This document shows, one piece after another, positions 5,231 through 26,802 of a stretch of DNA of 64,000 bases. The notes beneath the pieces are model-generated. The model did no database searches. It worked only from the letters and a program-made list of their open reading frames with translations, and had not been told where the DNA came from. The stretch is taken from the NCBI GenBank assembly GCA_046335555.1, contig JBKDHA010000169.1:9048-73047 (forward strand), given 5' to 3'. The position numbers were made by a program, and so were the translations under genes. Every line of letters begins with the position of its first letter. Positions within the stretch are counted from its first letter, which is position 1. This DNA comes from Bacteroidota bacterium (GTDB lineage Bacteria; Bacteroidota; Bacteroidia; Palsa-965).

Positions 5231-7099
5231 TTATACAAATGCCTGCATATCATAGAGCTTGCGGTAGGCTCCCTTTTTCTCTAATAAAGCCTGGTGACTT
5301 CCGCGTTCAATAATTTCGCCGTGTTGCATCACTACAATCTCATCGGCATGCTGAATTGTGCTCAAACGGTGAGCAATGATAAGGGATGTGCGGTTGCGCA
5401 TGAGGTTATTGAGGGCATCCTGCACCAACCGCTCCGAACTTGTGTCGAGTGCTGATGTGGCTTCGTCGAGAATGAGCAGCGGCGGGTTTTTGAGCACAGC
5501 TCTGGCAATGGCAATACGCTGCCGCTGGCCGCCCGACATCTTACCTCCGCGGTCGCCGATATTGGTTTGATAGCCGTCGGGCATGGCGGTGATAAAGTCG
5601 TGGGCATTGGCTACTCGGGCTGCTGCTTCAACTTCTTCCTGTGTTGCTCCGTCAACGCCGAAAGCAATGTTGTTGAACACAGTATCGTTGAACAAAATTG
5701 ATTCCTGCGATACAATGCCCATCTGCGCACGCAAATCGTGCAGGCGGAAATTTCGAATGTTTACACCGTCTATCAGTACTTCGCCTTCGGTTACATCGTA
5801 GAAACGCGGAAGTAAATCGGCCAGCGTAGTTTTGCCGGAGCCCGACTGTCCGACAAGCGCAATTGTTTTGCCTTTCTGCACTGTAAGATTAATATTGCGC
5901 AGGGCATAACCATCATCGCCGCGGGTGTATGCAAACGAAACATTTTTGTATTCAATGGCATTGCTGAAACTCGTTAGCGGCGCTGGTTGCGGTGCATCCG
6001 AAATTGTTTCTTCGGCATCAAGCACAGCATTAATGCGGTCGGCAGAAGCAAGACCTTTCTGCACATTGTTGTAAGCTTGTGAAAACTGACGAACAGGTGT
6101 AATGAGTTGCGAAAAAACAACCACGTAGCCAAAGAATTGTGCAGCAGGCAGTGTGCCATCGCCATACAACACCAGACGACCTCCGTAGTACATGATTACT
6201 GTCATTACAATCACAATCAGGAACTCGCTCATGGGAGAAGCCAGATCTACACGGCGGTAATTGCGCACCATAATGCGGGTATATTCTTCGTTTTCTTTCC
6301 GGAAGCGGTCGCTCACTTTTTTGCCGGCATTAAAGCCTTTGATGATGCGCAAACCGCCAAGCATTTCATCCATAAGCGAAAGCAGCAGTCCTAGTTTGGC
6401 TTTGGCTTTATGCGAAGTTTTGCGAAGACTTTTAGAAACTATAGCCAGTAAACCGCCAACCACAGGCGTTGCAGCAAGCACAAACAGTGTAAGTTCCGGA
6501 CTTGCCAAAATCAGATAAATCAGAAAGCCGAGAATGGTTACCGGTTCGCGAAAAATCATTTCAAGCGAACTCATGATACTCCATTCAATTTCCTGCACAT
6601 CGGCAGTCATACGGCTTATCAGATCGCCTTTGCGTTCGTTGCTGTAATAACTCAGCGGCAAACGCAGGGCTTTGTCGTACATTTTATTTCGCAGATCGCG
6701 CACAACACCGTTGCGAATTGTAGCCAGCGAATACATGGCCAAGTAACGAAATACGCTTTTGAAAAAGATGAAAATTACAGCCGCAATACATATAAAAATG
6801 AGTGCCTGCATTTTGGCTGCACTCATATCAGGGGCCGATGTAATGTAATCGGCAAGCTCATAGTTGATGCGGGCTACAAGGCTTTTAGGTGAGGTTACTT
6901 CTACAACTCCCGCTGCGGCAACTTCACGCAAACGCTCATCGCCACCCTGAAACAAAAGATCCAGCAGCGGCATTACTGTTAACAGCGAAAGCAGGTTGAA
7001 TATTACTGAAAGTATATTGAAGAAAATATTCATACCGGCATTGCGCCAGTAGCCATCAACATATTTCAGTACTCCGAAAAATTTTCTCATTGAGGGCAA
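5231..7099 (-). CDS. ABC transporter ATP-binding/permease fusion (MsbA-like exporter)
   Basis: Six predicted TM helices in the N-terminal half. Walker A (GQSGSGKTT), ABC signature (LSGGQRQRIAIARA), Walker B (LILDEATSALD). Confidence 0.9.
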   Translation of the reverse strand: MPSMRKFFGVLKYVDGYWRNAGMNIFFNILSVIFNLLSLLTVMPLLDLLFQGGDERLREVAAAGVVEVTSPKSLVARINYELADYITSAPDMSAAKMQALIFICIAAVIFIFFKSVFRYLAMYSLATIRNGVVRDLRNKMYDKALRLPLSYYSNERKGDLISRMTADVQEIEWSIMSSLEMIFREPVTILGFLIYLILASPELTLFVLAATPVVGGLLAIVSKSLRKTSHKAKAKLGLLLSLMDEMLGGLRIIKGFNAGKKVSDRFRKENEEYTRIMVRNYRRVDLASPMSEFLIVIVMTVIMYYGGRLVLYGDGTLPAAQFFGYVVVFSQLITPVRQFSQAYNNVQKGLASADRINAVLDAEETISDAPQPAPLTSFSNAIEYKNVSFAYTRGDDGYALRNINLTVQKGKTIALVGQSGSGKTTLADLLPRFYDVTEGEVLIDGVNIRNFRLHDLRAQMGIVSQESILFNDTVFNNIAFGVDGATQEEVEAAARVANAHDFITAMPDGYQTNIGDRGGKMSGGQRQRIAIARAVLKNPPLLILDEATSALDTSSERLVQDALNNLMRNRTSLIIAHRLSTIQHADEIVVMQHGEIIERGSHQALLEKKGAYRKLYDMQAFV

Positions 7100-7116
7100 A
7101 GATAATCGGAATGCAT

Positions 7117-7351
7117 GTGGCTTCGACAGGCTCAGCCACCTGCGAGATTTTTGTTTTTATCCACCTGCGAGATTTTTGTTTTTATCCACCTGCGAGATTT
7201 TTGTTTTTATCCACCTGCGAGATTTTTGTTTTTATCCACCCTGGAGATTTTAGTTTTTATTCACCCTGGAGATTTTTTTTATCCACCCTGGAGATGTTTA
7301 TTTATCTAGCTTCCAGAACGCATATCGGTGGCTGAGCCTGTCGAAGCCACC
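7117..7351. repeat. Inverted-repeat-bounded tandem array: 24-bp perfect TIRs (7117-7140 and 7327-7350) around about 7 copies of a 25-bp unit (ccacctgcgagatttttgtttttat; 4 perfect copies plus 3 degenerate, 7136-7305)
   Basis: Read directly from the sequence. The left TIR gtggcttcgacaggctcagccacc equals the reverse complement of 7327-7350. The periodic ORFs here (7090..7335 and 7115..7309) are repeat artefacts. Confidence 0.9.
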
Positions 7352-7541
7352 GATACGCACACAAAATCTACTTCTTCTGCTGATCAGATGCCGGCACTTG
7401 TTTTGTGTCAGTTTAAATAGAATTAGAATGAATCTTTTTAAGCCAGAAAGTGGCTGATCTGTTTATTTTATGTGTTGTTAGTCAGTGTTTTATTTGTTCT
7501 AAGTGGCGTTTTTTTAGTTTGTTGGGTATATTCGAAATAAA

Positions 7542-8642
7542 TTGAAAGAAATCAAAGTGATTTATATGAATAGGAAAATCTATAGAAGTATTATCTTTAG
7601 TAAATCACAACTCAAAACGCAATTAAAATTTGGTGATTATTTCCAGATTTATCCTTGTGATTTTAAAAAAGCTCCAGCTTCTCCATACTGTAGTGATTTT
7701 CCATTGGTGATTGAATATTATGTTGATGAAGTGCCTGAAGTGAAACTTCCTGATGAGTTACAAGAATTATCGACATGGGTTCATGAAAGTACTCAAAAAA
7801 TTAATCAGTTAAATCGACTATTGCGATTATTGTCGGTATTGACAAATCATAGATTTTTTATCATCGAAGAAAGTGGATATAAATGGGGTAAGGCTTTACC
7901 TGATCTTAAATTAAACGAAAATGAGAAAGAAGCCTTTAATAGTTCATCAAGTCAGACATTTTCACCTGGGTTTTACTATCCGAGTATTGCGGATGATTTA
8001 TGCATTACCGATTTTTCAGAGCAAAAATTTCCGGTTGCTGTGTTGATTGAGCATACTAAATATTATCGACGTGTTCCAAGTGATGATAGAGACATAGATA
8101 TAAATTTCCCGAACACAATTTATCAATCCGTTGACAAGTATTTTAGTTTAGATAATAATCGAAAAAAAGTTGCAAATTCTGTCAATCATCTTATTTGTAA
8201 TGGCATAGAAATTAAAGACAAGATGAAGAGTTTGTCGTTCCTATCCTTTGTTTCGGCTATTGAAACAATCGTGAATTATGAATTTAAAAAGAAAAATGAT
8301 GTAATAGAGTTTGAGTGTAATGACTGTCAAACAATAAAAACATCACAATTCACTTGTCCCAAATGTCAAAGACCAATTTGGGGAGTTAAAACGAAATTCA
8401 AAGAGTTTTTGAAAACTTACGTTTCAGGCACACCTAAATCAATAGAAAAGTATAATAAAATCTATAACCTTAGGTCAAAAATTGTTCATGCAGGTGTGTT
8501 GCTTTTAGGAGATGAGGAAATTGACTGGGGAGAATCATTAAATACGAATGAGCAATACACAACTTATTATGAGTCAATGCAACTTGCAAGGGAAAGTTTA
8601 TCTAATTGGTTACTTAAAGGAGCAAATAATATATCGGTTTGA
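7542..8642 (+). CDS. Hypothetical zinc-ribbon protein with C-terminal HEPN-like (Rx4H) motif; candidate abortive-infection/defence nuclease
   Basis: Very AT-rich ORF. C-x2-C-x9-C-x2-C zinc ribbon (CNDCQTIKTSQFTCPKC). Downstream helical segment LRSKIVHAG fits the HEPN Rx4-6H catalytic motif. The true start may be M10 (7569). Confidence 0.55.
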   Translation: MKEIKVIYMNRKIYRSIIFSKSQLKTQLKFGDYFQIYPCDFKKAPASPYCSDFPLVIEYYVDEVPEVKLPDELQELSTWVHESTQKINQLNRLLRLLSVLTNHRFFIIEESGYKWGKALPDLKLNENEKEAFNSSSSQTFSPGFYYPSIADDLCITDFSEQKFPVAVLIEHTKYYRRVPSDDRDIDINFPNTIYQSVDKYFSLDNNRKKVANSVNHLICNGIEIKDKMKSLSFLSFVSAIETIVNYEFKKKNDVIEFECNDCQTIKTSQFTCPKCQRPIWGVKTKFKEFLKTYVSGTPKSIEKYNKIYNLRSKIVHAGVLLLGDEEIDWGESLNTNEQYTTYYESMQLARESLSNWLLKGANNISV

Positions 8643-8711
8643 ACAGCTTTTGAGTTATATGACACCAAAGCTTTTCATTTACTGATAGAGTTTGACTTAA
8701 AAAGAAAAAGT

Positions 8712-9548
8712 ATGAATGCGATTAAATTATTTGAAAGCAAACAAATCAGAACAGTTTGGAACGAATCAGACCAGAAATGGTATTTCGTGGTTGCTGATGT
8801 TGTGAGTGTTCTAACCGATACACCTAATCCGGTGGATTACATTAAAAAAATGCGCAAAAGAGACGAGCAGCTTTCTCAAGGGTGGGGACAACTTGTCACC
8901 CCCCTTTCTGTAAGTACTGCCGGTGGTAAACAGAAACTGAATTGTGCTCATGCTCAAGGTCTTTTAAGAATCATTCAATCTATTCCGTCACCCAAAGCAG
9001 AGCCATTTAAACTTTGGCTGGCACAAGTTGGTGCTGACCGGTTAGATGAAATTGAGAACCCGGAACTGGCTACGCAACGAACCAGAGAATTATATAAACT
9101 TAAAGGCTATTCCGATGCCTGGATAGAAAAACGAATGCGGAGTATAGCCATTCGTGAAGAACTGACAGAAGAATGGAAAAACAGGGGAGTTAAAGAACAA
9201 ATAGAATATGCAATACTGACCGCTGAAATTTCGAAAGCAACATTTGGTTTGACTCCTTCTGAGTATAAGAAAGTAAAAGGATTGAAGGCTGAAAATCTCC
9301 GAGATCACATGAATGATCTTGAACTGATTTTTTCAATGTTGGGTGAAGCCTCTACAACCGCTATTGTTAAAACAAGAAATCCCAAAGGATTTACCGAAAA
9401 TCGAATAGCTGCCAAGCAAGGCGGATCGGTTGCCGGAAAAGCAAGGCGAGATCTTGAAATAAAAACTGGGCAAAAAGTGATAACCACCGAAAATTACCTG
9501 CCCGAACCAAAGCAGAAAAAAGCCATTAAAAAAGGCAAGAAGAAATAA
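8712..9548 (+). CDS. Bro-N (KilA-N) domain protein, DinD / phage-antirepressor-like
   Basis: N-terminus 'IKLFESKQIRTVWNESDQKWYFVVADVVSVL' fits the Bro-N consensus (F..IR......W..a.DV...L). Lysine-rich C-terminal tail. Confidence 0.7.
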   Translation: MNAIKLFESKQIRTVWNESDQKWYFVVADVVSVLTDTPNPVDYIKKMRKRDEQLSQGWGQLVTPLSVSTAGGKQKLNCAHAQGLLRIIQSIPSPKAEPFKLWLAQVGADRLDEIENPELATQRTRELYKLKGYSDAWIEKRMRSIAIREELTEEWKNRGVKEQIEYAILTAEISKATFGLTPSEYKKVKGLKAENLRDHMNDLELIFSMLGEASTTAIVKTRNPKGFTENRIAAKQGGSVAGKARRDLEIKTGQKVITTENYLPEPKQKKAIKKGKKK

Positions 9549-9585
9549 TCAGTTCAAAGTAAACTAGTGCAGGCAGCTCCCCAAC

Positions 9586-10107
9586 TCATTTCTTCTGCTG
9601 ATCGGATGCCGGAACTTGTTCCTGCTTCAGTTCAACCGGAATGGTTTTTCTCAGCCCCAGTGTTCCGGCCTTAATCCAGCCTTTCACTTCAACATTTGTC
9701 TGTTTCTGTGCTATAACCTTAATAAGCGCCGGAATGCCGCGAATGACATCAGCTAATTTGGCATTCACTTTTACGCGGTAAACATCTTCTGTTTTGCGTT
9801 TGATTTTTACTTTTTCGTTTACCGAAACTTTGCCCAGCGGAACTCCGCCAATTTTGATGTCGAGTTCTGAGCCGAATAGTGTAAACGCAATGCCGTTCGG
9901 ATTGTCGATTTTCATACCGAGGTCGAGCACTACAATGCCCTGAATCGGATCAAGCTTTAAAAACTTGATGTCTTCAATGCCTTTCGGAATAATTGGTTTC
10001 AAACCACATCCGCTGAGGATGAATACGAGCGGAAACGCAAGCAAAAGTGAAAACCGACGGAGGTTGTGCATGAGCTGAAGTTTATTAATGCGCATCTCTA
10101 AAAACAA
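9586..10107 (-). CDS. Hypothetical lipoprotein (LEA_2-like small beta protein); its 3' end is the right-hand att-like repeat
   Basis: Signal peptide plus lipobox (ILSGCG). 173 aa. The last 10 codons are duplicated at 7373-7403. Confidence 0.6.
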   Translation of the reverse strand: MFLEMRINKLQLMHNLRRFSLLLAFPLVFILSGCGLKPIIPKGIEDIKFLKLDPIQGIVVLDLGMKIDNPNGIAFTLFGSELDIKIGGVPLGKVSVNEKVKIKRKTEDVYRVKVNAKLADVIRGIPALIKVIAQKQTNVEVKGWIKAGTLGLRKTIPVELKQEQVPASDQQKK

Positions 10108-10191: not shown

Positions 10192-11586
10192 TTACTTCGG
10201 GTTGTTTACATAATTTTTGTAAAACAGCGGAATGGTTTCAATGCCTTTCAGGTAATTGAAAACACCATAATGCTCGTTGGGCGAGTGCAGCGCATCCGAA
10301 TCAAGGCCAAATCCAAACAAAATTGAATCGAGTCCGAGCACGCTTTTGAAAAGTGCCACAATCGGAATACTGCCGCCGCCGCGGGTTGGAATTGGTTTCT
10401 TGCCGTAAGCTTCTTCCATAGCAGCACTTGCAGCACGGTAAGCAGCCGAATTAGTAGAAACCACAACCGGTTCTCCGCCGTGATGATGCGAAACTTTTAC
10501 TTTAACGCCGGCCGGAGCAATTGCTTTGAAATGCTCGGCAAACTTGTTTGAAATCTCTTCCGAAGTCTGGTTCGGCACAAGACGCATCGAAATTTTCGCA
10601 TAAGCTTTCGACGGAAGAACAGTTTTTGCTCCTTCGCCGGTGTAGCCACCCCAGATGCCGTTTACATCGAGCGTCGGACGTGTGCCGGTGCGCTCAATGG
10701 TGGTGTAGCCTTTTTCGCCTTGAATATCGGCAATGTCGAGATCGCGTTTGTACTCTTCGAGATCAAACGGTGCACGGTTCAGTTCGGCACGGTCTTCGGC
10801 TGAAAGATCGGTTACATTATCGTAAAAACCGGGAATGGTGATGTGGTTATTTTCATCGTGCAGCGAAGCAATCATTTTGCAAAGCACATTCACCGGATTG
10901 GCAACAGCACCGCCGTAAACACCTGAGTGCAGGTCGCGGTTGGGGCCGGTTACTTCCACTTCCATGTATGCAAGACCACGCAGGCCAACATCAATAGAAG
11001 GTGTATCGTTGGCAATGATGGAGGTGTCTGAAATCAGAATCACATCGGCTTTGAGTTTCTCTTTGTGTGCACGCAGAAAATCGCCGAGGTTGGCCGATCC
11101 AACTTCTTCTTCACCTTCAATCATAAACTTCACGTTGCAGGGCAGGGTGTTGGTTTTCAGCATCACCTCAAGCGCCTTAACGTGCATGTACATCTGTCCT
11201 TTATCATCGCACGAGCCGCGGGCGAAAATAGCACCGTCAGGATGCTTATCGGTTTTGCGGATAACCGGCTCAAACGGCGGCGTAGTCCACAATTCCAGCG
11301 GATCCGGGGGCTGCACATCGTAGTGACCGTAAACGAGCACGGTAGGCAGGTGATCGCCCATGCGCTTTTCACCATATACAATCGGATGGCCGGGAGTAGG
11401 AATGATTTCGGCACTGTCGGCACCGGCAGCGAGCAGACTGGCTTTAACAGCATCAGCAGTGCGCTGCACATCGGGCGCATATTTCGGATCAGCACTCACA
11501 GAAGGAATGCGGAGAAGCTCAAACAGTTCGTTCAGGAAACGATCTTTGTTTTGCTGGATATAATCGCTTTGCGTTGACATAGGCAC
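10192..11586 (-). CDS. M20/M25/M40 family metallopeptidase (dipeptidase-like)
   Basis: HYDVQP metal-binding motif, GSCDDKG, and catalytic E (IEGEEE). 464 aa, as in PepV/Sapep-type dipeptidases. Confidence 0.85.
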   Translation of the reverse strand: MPMSTQSDYIQQNKDRFLNELFELLRIPSVSADPKYAPDVQRTADAVKASLLAAGADSAEIIPTPGHPIVYGEKRMGDHLPTVLVYGHYDVQPPDPLELWTTPPFEPVIRKTDKHPDGAIFARGSCDDKGQMYMHVKALEVMLKTNTLPCNVKFMIEGEEEVGSANLGDFLRAHKEKLKADVILISDTSIIANDTPSIDVGLRGLAYMEVEVTGPNRDLHSGVYGGAVANPVNVLCKMIASLHDENNHITIPGFYDNVTDLSAEDRAELNRAPFDLEEYKRDLDIADIQGEKGYTTIERTGTRPTLDVNGIWGGYTGEGAKTVLPSKAYAKISMRLVPNQTSEEISNKFAEHFKAIAPAGVKVKVSHHHGGEPVVVSTNSAAYRAASAAMEEAYGKKPIPTRGGGSIPIVALFKSVLGLDSILFGFGLDSDALHSPNEHYGVFNYLKGIETIPLFYKNYVNNPK

Positions 11587-11767
11587 AAAGATAAGCCGCT
11601 GCGCGGAATTATTAATGTAAAGTGATGAGTGTTGAATGATTGCCGGGCTTCGCCCGGGAGTGTTAAGTGAAAAGTGTAAAGTGGAAAGCGATTTTATGAT
11701 TCGCCTTTGGCGAATAGTTGTTCTTCGCTGCGCTCAGTTCTGCATGTTTTTTCGCTGCGCTCAGTGT

Positions 11768-19128: not shown

Positions 19129-19319
19129 GTTACAAAGGTAAGAAGCTGTCAGGGAATTTTCTTACTTAATGATTTCATGTCTTTTTAGCCCGCTTTTCGT
19201 TACTTTTCTCAACAAGACCTTTCAGGTATTCTTTCAAAAAGTGCCTCAATCGGTCTAAAAATACATTGAAATCAAAGCGCAACAAAATTCCCTGACAGCC
19301 TCTGAGGAAATCAATATCT

Positions 19320-20768
19320 TTGAAAACACCAACCAACCACACCTGCATGAAACGTGTTCTGCTTTTTGGACTTTGTTTGCTCAGCGGCAACTTACTCAAT
19401 GCACAAATAGATCTTGGCGTACCCTCGGCAACCGGAAAGGGCGGGGTTTCTACTGCTCTGCTGCAAAACTGGGAAGTCATTGGTATAAATCCTGCCAATC
19501 TGGGCTGGGGAACCAACTACAAATTCTCGGTTGGTGTGATGAACTTCGGTTTTACCGCACAGTCGCGGGCGCTCGATTTTCCTTCGCTGCGCAAAGCATT
19601 TACAAAGCCTTCGGCGCAGTTTACACCGCAGCAGAAACAGGAATTTGCCAATCTGTTTTCGACATCCGACGGACTCAATATGCAAATGCATGTGAACTGG
19701 ATTGCGGCTTCAATTGCATTTCCAAAGTTCGGCGGACTTGCTGTTAACCTTCGCGACCGCGCTTTTGCGCATGTTGGTCTGAGCAAGAACGGCGCAGATA
19801 TTTTATTCAACGGCGTAAACTCAGCACCTTATCAGGACAGCAGCATTCTCAGTCAAAACATATCATCGGTGCTCGACGGAACCAATGCCAGCCTTTTGCA
19901 TTACCGCGAACTCAATCTGGCTTACGGCCGACGCATCCTGAAAATGGGCACCGAAGATGCCGACGGTGTGCCCGCTGTACAATTGTTTGCCGGTGCCGGA
20001 GTAAAATATATTTGGGGACTCGGCAATATGGATGTAAATGTGAAAGACGGAAAGCTTGATGGTCATGCCTCGTTTGTGGAGAGCTACAATGTGAATTACG
20101 GCAATCTTCAAAACTTCACACCGCAATCGACACCGCTGCTGTTTGATGCAGTTGGTTCCGGCATTGGTGTTGATGCAGGCGCATCGCTGATTCTGAACAA
20201 CCGTTTCCGCTTCGGTGTTTCGGTTACCGACATCGGTTCGATAACCTGGGGCAATAATGTTTTGCTCACAAGCGATACACTGATGCCCGCACTTGATTCA
20301 ACAAGCACCGGGTTGAACTCGTGGCAACTCGGCAGCCAGAGCGGAAATTTGTTCGGACAAAACGGAATTCTCAATGTTGCTCCGGGCCCCGATTATACAA
20401 CAGCTTTGCCTGCGCGCTTGCGTTTTGGTTACAGCATGCGCATTGGTAAACGCATTGATCTTGGCGCCGATTTGGTTGTGCCGCTAAATAAAGAGCTGTA
20501 TAATCTCGGACAGCCTTATCTGGCTGTTGGCGGCGAAATTAATTTGTTCGGAACTGCAAAACTTAGCCTTGGCTTTTCGGGCAACAACGAACTGGGCTGG
20601 TCGGTGCCGGTTGGTTTCACCATTGGCACATTCGGAATTTTTGAAGTGTATGTAGCCACCGGCGATGTGCTTTCGTACTTCACCAAAACCGATAATCCGC
20701 ACCTTTCGGTTGCAGTTGGCGTGCTGCGTTTCAATCTCAAGAATCCATTAGATAACAACAATAAGTAA
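19320..20768 (+). CDS. Hypothetical outer-membrane beta-barrel protein
   Basis: Signal peptide. Alternating amphipathic beta strands, G/S/N-rich. C-terminal F (GVLRFNLKNP...). Confidence 0.55.
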   Translation: MKTPTNHTCMKRVLLFGLCLLSGNLLNAQIDLGVPSATGKGGVSTALLQNWEVIGINPANLGWGTNYKFSVGVMNFGFTAQSRALDFPSLRKAFTKPSAQFTPQQKQEFANLFSTSDGLNMQMHVNWIAASIAFPKFGGLAVNLRDRAFAHVGLSKNGADILFNGVNSAPYQDSSILSQNISSVLDGTNASLLHYRELNLAYGRRILKMGTEDADGVPAVQLFAGAGVKYIWGLGNMDVNVKDGKLDGHASFVESYNVNYGNLQNFTPQSTPLLFDAVGSGIGVDAGASLILNNRFRFGVSVTDIGSITWGNNVLLTSDTLMPALDSTSTGLNSWQLGSQSGNLFGQNGILNVAPGPDYTTALPARLRFGYSMRIGKRIDLGADLVVPLNKELYNLGQPYLAVGGEINLFGTAKLSLGFSGNNELGWSVPVGFTIGTFGIFEVYVATGDVLSYFTKTDNPHLSVAVGVLRFNLKNPLDNNNK

Positions 20769-21594: not shown

Positions 21595-21619
21595 GGTGGT
21601 TTCGACAGGCTCAACCACC
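21595..21619. repeat. Hairpin repeat copy (ggtggtttcgacaggctcaaccacc) immediately after the SDR stop codon; left TIR of a 1.4-kb AT-rich block
   Basis: Same core (TTCGACAGGCTCA) as 7117-7140. 24 of 25 match to the reverse complement of 23036-23060. Confidence 0.85.
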
Positions 21620-21897
21620 ACAGCTTTTAGTCAAAAGCTCAACTGTCAACAGCTGTATTAATTGTTGTGGAAAGCATTTCTGGAAAATTTAGTTCAATTA
21701 AAATTTTTGATCGTCAAACTTTATATAGAATCTGATTTTACAACACCAAAAACGGCAACAGAATTTTTCACAACTTCTTTGACGATGCGTCCAAGAAGTA
21801 AATGTGGGAGATCGTCAAATCGAGATGATAAACTGTTTTGCCAATGCGAAGTATCGATTTTCCCTATCATAACTTATATTTATTGAGGTTAGTTGAA

Positions 21898-22233
21898 TTA
21901 TATCATAAATATGATTCGCAGGATAACAAACCAGTACACGAGTGCCATAGCTGCCAATACCCCCTGAACGGAGAGAATGATTTTATCCTTTGTGCTGAAT
22001 TTGATTTTATGGCGTTGATTCAACATGAGAAAAAATAGAATAATCGCCAGCGGGGAGGAAACGAACCGCATGAATGTAAGCCATTTCATTTCCCATAAAT
22101 AAATTAAGATAACGTTATCGACATAAAAAAAATAGTTTATTCCAGGAAGGAAATACAGAAAGAAATAGATTACAACTGGGGCAATAATGCCCCAAATACT
22201 TACTCGGAAGTAAACATCAATCTTTCGTTTCAT
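21898..22233 (-). CDS. Hypothetical small membrane protein
   Basis: 111 aa, three predicted TM helices, very AT-rich codon usage. Confidence 0.4.
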   Translation of the reverse strand: MKRKIDVYFRVSIWGIIAPVVIYFFLYFLPGINYFFYVDNVILIYLWEMKWLTFMRFVSSPLAIILFFLMLNQRHKIKFSTKDKIILSVQGVLAAMALVYWFVILRIIFMI

Positions 22234-22244
22234 TTCATCTATTA

Positions 22245-22847
22245 TTATTCATCGAAAAGCCCAAAGTATTCGTCATTTCTATTACCTATCGATGTGAATC
22301 TCATCCACTGATCAGAGATTCTTCTATATTGCTCAACGGGATAATACCTCGGAGACATCAAGCTATTGGCAAGTTCTATCATTTGTTGGTCGGTGTATTT
22401 TTGAGATGAAAAAATATATCCATCTGTTTGTTCCGCTCTACCATTTTTTTCATAAGGGAAAATAATCATGACTTTTTTATTTTCTGACAGCAGAATCAAT
22501 CTTGAATTTGTATAGTTGATGTATTTATTTAATCTAGTGTATGCTACATCTGATAGTATATCTTCCGTATTGTAATCCAAGCCATGGTCATATCCTAAGC
22601 CACTACACCATATTGTTTGGGTATCATTAAGAGAAGGGAATGACATATATGCAATCCCTCCCGGAACATCTTTCAATGAATCTAAAGGTGATGTATTAAT
22701 TACTTGCTCATTATCGTGAATACAAGAGGAAAAACAAAAAAGCAATAATACAGCAGTAAAAAAACTGTAATACAAGTTTATATATGGCTTAATTTTGAAA
22801 GCAAAAACTCGCATAAATATAATGTTTAATACTAAGGATAATCGCAT
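22245..22847 (-). CDS. Hypothetical lipoprotein
   Basis: Signal peptide/lipobox (LLLFCFSSC). 200 aa. AT-rich. Confidence 0.45.
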   Translation of the reverse strand: MRLSLVLNIIFMRVFAFKIKPYINLYYSFFTAVLLLFCFSSCIHDNEQVINTSPLDSLKDVPGGIAYMSFPSLNDTQTIWCSGLGYDHGLDYNTEDILSDVAYTRLNKYINYTNSRLILLSENKKVMIIFPYEKNGRAEQTDGYIFSSQKYTDQQMIELANSLMSPRYYPVEQYRRISDQWMRFTSIGNRNDEYFGLFDE

Positions 22848-23035
22848 TGAATAACTTTAGAATCCTACAAAAGAATGATTCAGTATTAGCACTGAACTAT
22901 TTTCGTTATAGGAAACGGCGTTATTCATATTTGCTAATATAGTGTACCGTAACTTTGAATTCAAGTTTCGTAACCAATTTTACATTATTTACAGTTAAAA
23001 GCTTATCGGTTTAGGTAATTGAGCTTGTCGATTTA

Positions 23036-23060
23036 GGTGGTTGAGCCTGTCGAAATCACC
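23036..23060. repeat. Hairpin repeat copy (ggtggttgagcctgtcgaaatcacc) inside an extended 9-bp stem (atttaggtg/cacctaaat) overlapping the GNAT stop; right TIR
   Basis: Read directly from the sequence. A partial tandem duplication (gagcttgtcgatttaggt) lies just upstream. Confidence 0.85.
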
Positions 23061-23623
23061 TAAATTGATTTCATAAAGCGAATTAAATATCCCTCGCGCA
23101 CAAGCCACGTATCAAAAACTGCAAAGCCGCGTTTCTCGTAAAACGGAATGTTTTTATCGACAGAAGTTTCGAGGTAAACCTCTTTCCCTTCTTTTGCCGC
23201 AGTTTGCAATAACGTATCAAGCAATTGACTGCCCGAACCTTTGCCGTGGTGCTGCGGATCTGTTCCGATAAGCATTAAGTAATAATGTGGATACGCAGGG
23301 CGGCGCGATGAAATTGCTTTATCTTTTTTAAGCATATAAAACAGGCGATTCCAGCCGATCACCTTGTACACGAGTTTGAGTTGAGCAAGTGTTTCGGTGA
23401 GGAACGATGTTTTCTGTGTAGGGTCGAAAAATACCGCTACCGAATGCCCGTCGTTACTGAAGTGTAATCCGTTGTTTCGGATTCCTAATTCAATAGAGTA
23501 ATTCATTAATGCTGTAATACGCGCTTCTCGTCTTTCGTCATGTTTGATGGTATCGTTTACACTCAGATTTTTATCGAATGCAGCGGCGAGAATTTGGACG
23601 GCGTTATTTGATCTCAATTCCAT
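23060..23623 (-). CDS. GNAT family N-acetyltransferase
   Basis: Acetyl-CoA-binding motif (HGKGSGSQLL), 187 aa. Confidence 0.8.
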   Translation of the reverse strand: MELRSNNAVQILAAAFDKNLSVNDTIKHDERREARITALMNYSIELGIRNNGLHFSNDGHSVAVFFDPTQKTSFLTETLAQLKLVYKVIGWNRLFYMLKKDKAISSRRPAYPHYYLMLIGTDPQHHGKGSGSQLLDTLLQTAAKEGKEVYLETSVDKNIPFYEKRGFAVFDTWLVREGYLIRFMKSI

Positions 23624-25787: not shown

Positions 25788-25887
25788 GTAGCGACTTCCG
25801 GCGGGAAGTCGCTACAAAAGGTCAAACAACAAAGCAAAACACCAAACTCCACAAAAGGTCAAACAACAAAGCAAAACACCAAACTCC
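25788..25887. promoter_or_regulatory. Perfect 28-nt hairpin (gtagcgacttccggcgggaagtcgctac, 25788-25815) followed by a perfect 37-bp tandem duplication (25814-25850 and 25851-25887) in a divergent intergenic region
   Basis: Read directly from the sequence. The hairpin lies about 20 nt upstream of the HMA start codon on the minus strand. The repeats lie just upstream of the EamA gene. Confidence 0.6.
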
Positions 25888-25902
25888 AAAGTAACTGTAT
25901 CT

Positions 25903-26802
25903 TTGCCGCTTCAAACACCAGCCATGCAACAACGCACCGCACTTCAGTGGATCATTTTTGTAGCACTGGCCCTTACCTGGGGCAGTTCGTTTATACTGAT
26001 GAAGCGCGGCATGGATGTGTTTACACCCGATCAGGTAGCGGCACTGCGCATTGGTATTGCATTTTTGTTTTTGCTGCCGCTGGCATTCCGTTTTTTCAAG
26101 CGTATAAATCCGAAACCCTGGGGTGCACTTGCGGGCATGGGAATTACCGGAAATCTGATTCCTGCATTTCTGTTTACGCGTTCTGAAACCATGATCAGCA
26201 GCACGCTTGCCGGTATGCTGAATTCACTGACTCCGCTTTTTACTTTGCTTGTAGGAATCACGCTTTTTAAACGCAAAACCAACCGCTGGCAGGTTGCGGG
26301 AACCTTGATCGGATTGGCCGGTGCAATTGCGTTAATTGCAACAGGCAAACAAGACGAGCATCCCGGAAATGTATGGATAGGAAGCTTGCTTGTAATTATT
26401 GCAACGTTTTTTTACGGCATCAGCGTAAACATTATTAAAGCAAAACTCGACGGAATAAATGCAGTAGGTGCAACGGTTCTTGCACTGTGTATTATTGGCC
26501 CGGTTGCGCTCGGCTATTTGTTTACAACCGATTTTTTGCATCGTCTCGCAACGCATCCGCTGGCTTGGCAGTCGCTGGGCTTTGTGAGCATACTTGCGGT
26601 GTTTGGCACAGCGCTGAGTGTTATTGTTTACAATATGCTGATCCGCGATGCAGGCCCGCTGTTTGCTTCTTCAGTAGCATATCTGATTCCGGCAGTGGCT
26701 ATTCTCTGGGGCGTTGCCGATAATGAGGCTTTCGGACTAATTCAGCTTTTGCTGATTGGTATTATTCTTACCGGAGTGTGGATGGTGAACCGGAAGAAGT
26801 AG
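25903..26802 (+). CDS. EamA/DMT family transporter
   Basis: Ten TM helices. Duplicated EamA domains. Confidence 0.85.
   Translation: MPLQTPAMQQRTALQWIIFVALALTWGSSFILMKRGMDVFTPDQVAALRIGIAFLFLLPLAFRFFKRINPKPWGALAGMGITGNLIPAFLFTRSETMISSTLAGMLNSLTPLFTLLVGITLFKRKTNRWQVAGTLIGLAGAIALIATGKQDEHPGNVWIGSLLVIIATFFYGISVNIIKAKLDGINAVGATVLALCIIGPVALGYLFTTDFLHRLATHPLAWQSLGFVSILAVFGTALSVIVYNMLIRDAGPLFASSVAYLIPAVAILWGVADNEAFGLIQLLLIGIILTGVWMVNRKK

Follow-up and report, generated by a model that had tools for sequence, protein, structure and literature searches.

The window analysed here is a 64-kb stretch (64,000 nt) of contig JBKDHA010000169.1 from a Bacteroidota bacterium. At 7117-7358 it carries an element in which two 24-nt inverted arms enclose a 25-bp tandem array, just upstream of a gene for an MsbA-like ABC exporter. 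The question raised by this arrangement is whether it is a small mobile element with its cargo, or a cluster of short repeats beside which an array arose on the spot. A first-pass annotation, made from the letters of the sequence, had called it MITE-like or BIME-like (miniature inverted-repeat transposable element; bacterial interspersed mosaic element). On balance, the feature is probably a cluster resembling a BIME or REPIN (a repetitive extragenic palindromic, or REP, doublet forming hairpins) together with a locally arisen minisatellite, and not a transposon with cargo. The BIME half of the earlier description holds, as the arms are copies, in opposite orientation, of a dispersed REP-like hairpin that folds on itself. 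The other half, a MITE with terminal inverted repeats (TIRs) and cargo, is not supported: there is no target-site duplication, the arms have a minority orientation, orthologous hairpins stand without the array, and the array unit is absent elsewhere.

The arms, at 7117-7140 (GTGGCTTCGACAGGCTCAGCCACC) and 7327-7350, are 100% complementary with 186 nt between them, and an arm query gave no match across 100 dinucleotide shuffles of the window. Each arm is also a palindrome in itself, GGTGGC-TTCGACAGGCTCA-GCCACC, with a GTGGC/GCCAC stem that is lengthened to 14 bp in the right copy (7320-7358). Tandem Repeats Finder (TRF) counts 6.8 copies of the unit at 7136-7303, at 91% matches; the array is made up of four identical units (7136-7235) and three degenerate units of 25, 22 and 23 nt. 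The perfect 24-bp inverted repeats (24 of 24 positions) and the seven-copy array of four perfect and three degenerate units were thus described correctly in the first-pass annotation. The element does not, as had been stated there, abut a left att-like repeat, since the direct repeat of the adjoining islet begins at 7372, 21 nt past the right arm. Array unit 1 begins within the 3′ half-stem (CCACC) of the left arm, CCACC is kept in every unit, and the unit length, 25 nt, is that of the hairpin unit. The identical units, which adjoin the left arm, are the youngest part of the array; the degenerate three, farther off, are older.

The arms belong to a family of hairpins found well beyond this locus. 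A covariance model detected exactly four copies in the 64 kb (E 3e-8 to 9e-6) and no others, these being the two arms and a pair at 21596-23059 (Table 1). Three of the four lie just past a stop codon in sense orientation, and the DNA folds of hairpin copies range from -6.5 to -13.4 kcal/mol. A scan of one genome per species (596 Gb) with the pattern G-NN-TTCGACAGGCTCA-NN-C returned at least 120 loci. The isolates among the matches listed are Actinomycetota (Microbacterium, Arthrobacter, Gordonia and Propioniciclava), Alphaproteobacteria (Sphingomonas, Novosphingobium, Sphingobium and Altererythrobacter), Betaproteobacteria (Acidovorax, Pseudacidovorax and Paraburkholderia), Bacteroidota (Pedobacter) and Chloroflexota (Oscillochloris). 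Metagenome-assembled genomes (MAGs) of Treponema, cyanobacteria and other groups are listed as well, and the hairpin-loop pattern is present in at least 120 IMG/VR contigs, including copies between phage tail and portal genes.

By estimate, a 15-base pattern should be met by chance on the order of a thousand times in 596 Gb, so that the number of matches alone is no proof; the pairing of the free NN positions is. These positions pair in 128 and 126 of 139 sequences, with C-G, T-A, G-C and A-T pairs all represented. The stem covariation score of the 139 sequences is 0.283, against 0.131 ± 0.010 in shuffles (0 of 500 as high) and at most 0.136 with slid partners. Covarying stems accompany the loop TTCGACAGGCTCA in five phyla or more, as well as in phage contigs. 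Related copies of the arms, whose absence from the rest of the genome was to have counted against the earlier description, are abundant.

The hairpin consists of a stem of 5-14 bp, with GTGG...CCAC as a ‘double foot’, around a 13-nt loop that does not vary. Its 3′ tail varies by clade, being CGAACGG or TGAGCGG in Proteobacteria, ACCGG in Actinomycetota, Bacteroidales and Treponema, and TGACA in Chitinophagaceae, Flavobacteriaceae and Pedobacter. The GTGG...CCAC foot is carried by the members from the window, Actinomycetota, Bacteroidales and Treponema, while GT[AG]G is missing in the proteobacterial and TGACA-tail members. The commonest layout is an inverted doublet, TGAGCCTGTCGAA...TTCGACAGGCTCA (‘-+’; n = 48), in which the median length of the spacer is 28 nt; the orientation of the window arms to each other (‘+-’; n = 13) goes with wider spacers, and tandem clusters of the hairpin are frequent in other genomes. 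At lower-GC loci, intergenic copies lie between co-directional (29), convergent (8) and divergent (3) genes. Their orientation relative to the nearest 3′ gene end is unbiased (15 sense, 22 antisense), and no strand bias against GC skew was seen in what is a small sample.

The arms are independent of the array, and the array is unique to this locus. At the orthologous site, two relatives, L122 and L123 (with an ABC protein of 91% identity), have three hairpins but no 25-bp array, and the outer flanks there are homologous; between these two, the stem of the middle hairpin shows a G·T-to-A-T change. A third relative, L124 (ABC protein 96% identical), has no hairpin at the locus. The 25-bp unit was found neither elsewhere in the window nor in IMG/VR, and the JGI metagenomes gave one single-copy match (L246), which lies outside any array and is read as chance. 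The only independent left junction (L001) has the same orientation as the window, and a JGI contig has gene coordinates that would fit an array of equal length.

Similar arrays recur at hairpins in other genomes. Of the 268 tandem arrays found in 2.0 Mb of loci with hairpins, 45 are in contact with a hairpin. Bases within 20 nt of a hairpin make up only 0.9% of this sequence, so that the enrichment is about 19-fold. The units of these arrays, 17-25 nt long, begin anew from the 3′ half of the hairpin; examples (GGCTCAGCCCGAACGG plus 5-6 nt) are repeated in L005, L067 and L099. Given this enrichment, the array is most likely a by-product of slippage. The ancestor shared with the 91% relative already had the hairpins in this spacer, which runs from the end of a LEA_2-like gene to the ABC promoter. 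In the mechanism that we propose, the nascent hairpin would fold during replication, and the 3′ end could then realign on the CCACC microhomology, which is present in the 3′ half-stem of the arm and again 25 nt downstream, so duplicating one hairpin-length segment. Repeated slippage beside the arm may have produced first the three units that are now degenerate and, recently, the four identical ones. We infer that the element has no selected regulatory role; at most it would serve passively, spacing or insulating the ABC promoter from the DNA upstream. Locally, the element is then ordinary variable intergenic DNA beside an ABC exporter gene with an intact promoter, and it explains why short-read assemblies break here. 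More generally, a hairpin family that generates minisatellites at a defined position, its 3′ foot, would be a tractable natural system for the study of hairpin-driven tandem duplication.

Several observations weigh against a slippage origin in a hairpin cluster, or fit it poorly. The arms are identical at 24 of 24 nt, whereas the orthologous arms in L122 differ at 4-5 positions; such perfect identity points to recent homogenisation or replacement and is unexplained by slippage alone. The AT-rich 19-20 nt of the unit have no clear ancestor in L122, where there is a weak likeness between ATCTCCAGGGTGG and the flank ATCATCC...CCAGTGG. One Logan assembly breaks within the array and one JGI contig appears to begin at the left arm, which leaves room for a contingency function. 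The analysis identified no enzyme that acts in trans on the hairpin family. The source genome is visible as 64 kb, and further composite copies could exist in the remainder.

The position of the promoter limits what the element can do. The ABC gene most likely starts at the ATG at 7090 rather than at the TTG at 7099, so that the left arm is 26 nt from the start codon; the first-pass annotation had taken 7099 as the start, with the arm 18 bp upstream, but the match of the product to the NCBI-called protein P0001 (Table 1) points to the ATG at 7090. The consensus of the Bacteroidetes -7 promoter element is TAnnTTTG, and a box of this type, TATCTTTG, stands 6 nt before the ATG, between it and the left arm. 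This box is preserved in L122 and L124 despite their differing upstream DNA, and TAnnTTTG is absent from both strands of 7141-7326. The hairpin of the left arm extends over the -33 region. The array is farther upstream and is outside both the open reading frame (ORF) and the -33/-7 interval, the two places from which the copy number of a phase-variable repeat would switch expression. With the core -7 box between left arm and ATG, the array is not part of the 5′ untranslated region (UTR), and the transcript should start downstream of the left arm. The core promoter of the ABC gene is outside the element, which is neither an obvious mobile promoter nor an invertible one; the earlier proposal of a mobile promoter or UTR element is not borne out.

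These data bear on four other explanations, of which the nearest in anatomy is a non-autonomous transposon (MITE) like BrickBuilt, the arms being TIRs for a transposase acting in trans and the minisatellite trapped cargo. The inverted ends, the short-unit array (23 nt in BrickBuilt), the intergenic position and the Bacteroidota host would all fit, as would the perfection of the arms and the arm-like copies that bracket a 1.4-kb islet missing at the empty site L250. However, there is no target-site duplication at the arms, the outer flanks ...GGAATGCAT and CGATACGCA... having no common direct repeat. Nor is the unit present elsewhere in the window, in metagenomes (the L246 match apart) or in IMG/VR, and the orthologous hairpins in L122 and L123 stand without an array. 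The dominant doublet has the opposite orientation (48 versus 13), stems that covary around an invariant loop are the reverse of TIR conservation, and in eight cases no transposase was present between spaced hairpin pairs, where the genes are ordinary or phage structural. The BrickBuilt TIR, GAGACCTTTGCA, differs in sequence, and a MITE is regarded as quite improbable. An inverton, in which a recombinase flips the 186-bp segment and alters expression of the exporter, is very improbable, even though perfect 24-bp inverted repeats around some 190 bp directly upstream of a Bacteroidota gene are what it would look like, and on the plus strand the units contain TTTG as well as a near -7 motif (GATTTTTG) directed away from the ABC gene. 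The segment lacks TAnnTTTG on either strand while the gene's own conserved -7 box is outside the repeats, the arms are from a repeat family spread also through other phyla and phage contigs, none of the nine neighbouring proteins tested is a recombinase, and the sole other assembly shows the left junction in the same orientation.

A selected cis-regulatory module would be unlikely, though the array lies directly upstream of the core promoter. It would consist of phased protein sites, or of AT-rich UP-like or curved DNA, tuning the ABC promoter, and the number of units would serve as a rheostat. One candidate site is TTATCCACC, which resembles a DnaA box and is present as five sites at 25-bp spacing, each an 8 of 9 match; the four identical units indicate recent expansion. 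Yet TTATCCACC is the mere junction of AT-rich filler and the CCACC half-stem, the window has no perfect DnaA box and nothing that suggests a replication origin, close relatives use the same promoter with entirely different upstream DNA, and like arrays stand at hairpins in unrelated contexts. A role of the site as an origin was considered separately and rejected, as the fivefold TTATCCACC is a junction artefact, no box is perfect and there is no skew minimum at the site. Least probable is a structured RNA, either as a 24-28-bp stem with a repeat-filled loop or as hairpins that terminate or stabilise the LEA_2-like mRNA. The arm-to-arm stem, if single-stranded, has a strong fold (RNA -89.7 kcal/mol, z -7.5; DNA z -5.6), and three of the four window copies are in sense just past a stop codon, but the fold is a trivial consequence of the inverted repeat. 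The very long stem suggested by the first-pass annotation would form if the region were single-stranded, and nothing suggests a dedicated RNA. There is no U-tract at the arms, and a scan for intrinsic terminators and sigma-70 promoters, not built for Bacteroidota, gave nothing there. Rfam 15 yielded no relevant match in the region 6800-7800 (E <= 10), and the islet now separates the LEA_2-like gene from the element. Elsewhere the family is in frame within long genes in both orientations with no sense bias, which is incompatible with an efficient terminator or a sense-specific signal.

Among known systems, the hairpin of this cluster is closest in kind to REP, BIME and REPIN sequences, which are mobilised by REP-associated tyrosine transposases (RAYTs) of the Y1-HUH type. 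Like them, it is a short imperfect palindrome, mainly downstream of genes, which occurs as singles, inverted doublets and clusters. A ‘double foot’ has been described in REPs of RAYT subclass 2.4, from Bacteroidetes and scattered phyla (Quentin et al. 2018, PMC6006769), and the hairpin of the window lineage, with its 5′ GTGG foot and 3′ CCAC complement, shares this trait. Insertion of REPs in frame into genes is also known (PMC6006769). The differences lie in the loop, which is long (11-13 nt) and invariant across phyla with variable stems, whereas REPs are lineage-specific with short loops and conserved stems; in the proteobacterial hairpins, which lack GT[AG]G and have the 3′ tail CGAACGG or TGAGCGG; and in the window arms, which are 186 nt apart in the minority orientation. 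A regular expression for the HUH...Y motif found no RAYT or other Y1-HUH protein in the window plus the approximately 2 Mb of loci, a sample too small for RAYTs, which are single-copy. The hairpin motif is in neither of two REP catalogues, text or supplements.

The nearest anatomical analogue is BrickBuilt of Porphyromonas gingivalis (Klein et al. 2015, PMC4596501). Its TIRs are of IS5 type (GAGACCTTTGCA), it includes leader and tail segments, a genome contains 19 copies, and promoter activity has been measured. Common to both are inverted ends around spacer-less tandem units of 23-25 nt, an intergenic site near the promoter of a downstream gene, and a Bacteroidota host. The ends of the present element are instead self-folding hairpins of another family, a single composite was seen, and there is no promoter consensus. 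Bacteroidales invertons likewise have inverted repeats of about 20-30 bp flanking a segment of about 200 bp just upstream of a gene; here the promoter is outside the segment with none within, the arms come from a dispersed hairpin family, and the one junction available (L001) gave no alternate orientation. Rickettsia palindromic elements (RPEs), of 100-150 bp and not known outside that genus, are among the palindromic repeats found in frame in genes, as are members of the present family, in linkers or loops of real proteins. The window-family hairpins are shorter (about 20-30 nt) and spread across phyla.

The family is absent from Rfam 15, the two REP catalogues and full-text searches. With Rfam 15 there was no relevant match on 18 other hairpin-bearing loci or on L053 (E <= 10), Pfam has no family for ORFs read through the hairpin repeats, and full-text searches for the 13-mers and the encoded peptides gave nothing relevant. 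It is a tentative proposal, which may well prove too broad, that the arms are members of an uncatalogued cross-phylum family of structure-selected hairpin repeats. Such a family would be marked by an invariant loop, covarying stems, clade-specific tails, intergenic doublets, tandem arrays, in-frame copies, use of either orientation, and 17-25-nt minisatellites that grow from the 3′ half. A loop that is invariant across phyla would imply a common trans-acting factor reading it. A candidate is an HUH-type single-strand nuclease nicking within or near the loop, and such a nick could also explain why the arrays restart inside the loop. If true, this loop-reader system would be distinct from the known REP-RAYT pairs. 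Identity of the loop in Actinomycetota, Proteobacteria, Bacteroidota, Chloroflexota, spirochaetes and phages, unlike the lineage-specific REPs, calls for either a conserved loop reader or very efficient horizontal spread. The proteobacterial consensus GGCTCAG-NN-CGAACG may resemble both 16S rRNA at its 5′ end and a portion of the Tn3 inverted repeat, in each case probably by coincidence.

Hairpins are not confined to spacers. The loop is open in five of six reading frames, and 21 copies lie in frame deep within ORFs of at least 250 aa, encoding peptides such as STGS, EPVE, LRQAQ and FDRL. To judge from surrounding sequence motifs, three of the hosts appear to be a methionine synthase (MetH; in two genomes of Treponema), a helicase of the HsdR type and a glycoside hydrolase; further copies are in ORFs of viral contigs. 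The in-frame copies, the use of either orientation at orthologous sites and the lack of a sense bias in spacers argue against a terminator or a sense-specific RNA signal, and the hairpin family is best regarded as a selfish or structural element acting at the DNA level, REP-like or RPE-like. Spurious ORFs and in-frame peptide insertions also arise from it repeatedly.

In two Treponema MAGs, L057 (1929-1975, a doublet) and L069 (1432-1444), the hairpin is in frame in a putative MetH gene in opposite orientations (VEPVET...FDKLN versus VSTGSTT), apparently in an inter-domain linker. A comparable contrast is seen in IMG/VR contigs, in phage genes that are orthologous: a hairpin unit of about 21 nt occupies the same codon position in L187 (about 1270-1300) as in L228 (about 2605-2630) and L235 (about 2600), and is inverted between them (ASTGSAT versus AEPVEA). 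This implies either inversion in situ or repeated insertion, either way round, at one target. In L026, a termite-gut Bacteroidales MAG, a 1297-aa ORF (PurL-like, to judge from one motif) contains an in-frame block (about 5250-5420) of the TTCGACAGGCTCA-loop hairpin and a second hairpin repeat, CATTGCGAGGGCGAAAGCCCGAAGCAATCC, with a GAAA tetraloop; this second repeat is presumably also widespread. In L085, a Bacteroidota MAG, a Flavo-1 RNA (RF01705, 53.7 bits; 6895-6976) is found about 120 nt downstream of a hairpin doublet, probably by coincidence.

Table 1. Features of the element, its neighbours and the other hairpin copies (coordinates refer to the window)
Feature	Position	Strand	Details
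MsbA-like ABC exporter gene, 619 aa	5231..7090	-	Product identical to NCBI-called protein P0001 (100% identity and coverage)
Bacteroidota-type -7 box TATCTTTG of the ABC exporter gene	7097..7104	-	Match to TAnnTTTG
Left arm hairpin, GTGGC-TTCGACAGGCTCA-GCCAC(C)	7117..7140	+ (loop)	Covariance-model match 7113-7143, 37.5 bits, E 1e-7; DNA fold -7.4 kcal/mol
Four identical 25-bp units, CCACCTGCGAGATTTTTGTTTTTAT	7136..7235	.	CCACC half-stem in each
Three degenerate units, CCACCCTGGAGATTTTAGTTTTTAT, TCACCCTGGAGATTTTTTTTAT and CCACCCTGGAGATGTTTATTTAT	7236..7305	.	25, 22 and 23 nt
Right arm hairpin, core 7327-7350, 14-bp stem	7320..7358	- (loop)	Covariance-model match 7324-7354, 39.3 bits, E 3e-8; fold -13.4 kcal/mol, z -5.65
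AT-rich islet, 2.2 kb, with an unknown 366-aa ORF and a Bro-N/Ant-like gene	7372..9620	+	31-bp direct repeats at 7372-7402 and 9590-9620
Third hairpin copy, GGTGGT-TTCGACAGGCTCA-ACCACC	21596..21619	+	8 nt past the stop codon of an SDR gene; covariance model E 9e-8
Fourth hairpin copy (23036-23059) within a 22-bp x 2.5 tandem duplication	23000..23059	-	Directly after the stop codon of a GNAT gene; covariance model E 9e-6

Both hairpin sites of the window adjoin AT-rich islets. The one beside the element, at 7372-9620, is also found in the 91% relative L122. Its 31-bp repeats duplicate the 3′ end of the minus-strand LEA_2-like gene, the Bro-N/Ant-like protein has phrog_15286 as its best match, and no integrase was detected. 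The islet entered the LEA_2-like gene at its 3′ end and is context, not part of the element. Prior to its insertion, the ancestral LEA_2-like stop codon lay about 11 nt before the right arm, and the whole element was formerly in the spacer between two co-directional genes, LEA_2-like and ABC.

Between the convergent SDR and GNAT genes, the third and fourth hairpin copies bracket an islet of 1.4 kb (33% GC), in which there are two unknown ORFs, of 200 and 111 aa. In the relative L250 the corresponding empty site reads GNAT-21 nt-SDR, with neither hairpins nor islet. A strain of the same species, L249, has an islet that is 100% identical but carries a 31-nt insertion at the hairpin foot (2860-2925 of L249 versus 21596-21650 of the window). 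The insertion consists of 20 AT-rich nt and an 11-nt half-stem duplication of TGGTGGTTGAG. Nothing in the window is a source for this AT-rich filler, which is similar in composition to the filler of the 25-bp unit (7136-7303). In L252, the 22-nt duplication of window 23000-23053 is missing. L249 also shows a 300-bp patch of the GNAT gene (window 23290-23590) that is only 76-89% identical, while the islet and most flanks are 100% identical, and this looks like a recombination mosaic.

Boxes with the sequence TATCTTTG are found a few nt before start codons not only at 7097-7104 but also at 11586-11593, 19315-19322 and 25898-25905, which suggests that this organism has leaderless or near-leaderless mRNAs. 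Type IX secretion system (T9SS) sorting domains are present in neighbouring proteins of the window and assign it to the Bacteroidota. The last of the four boxes is directly preceded by a perfect tandem duplication of 37 bp x 2.0 (ACAAAAGGTCAAACAACAAAGCAAAACACCAAACTCC; 25814-25888).

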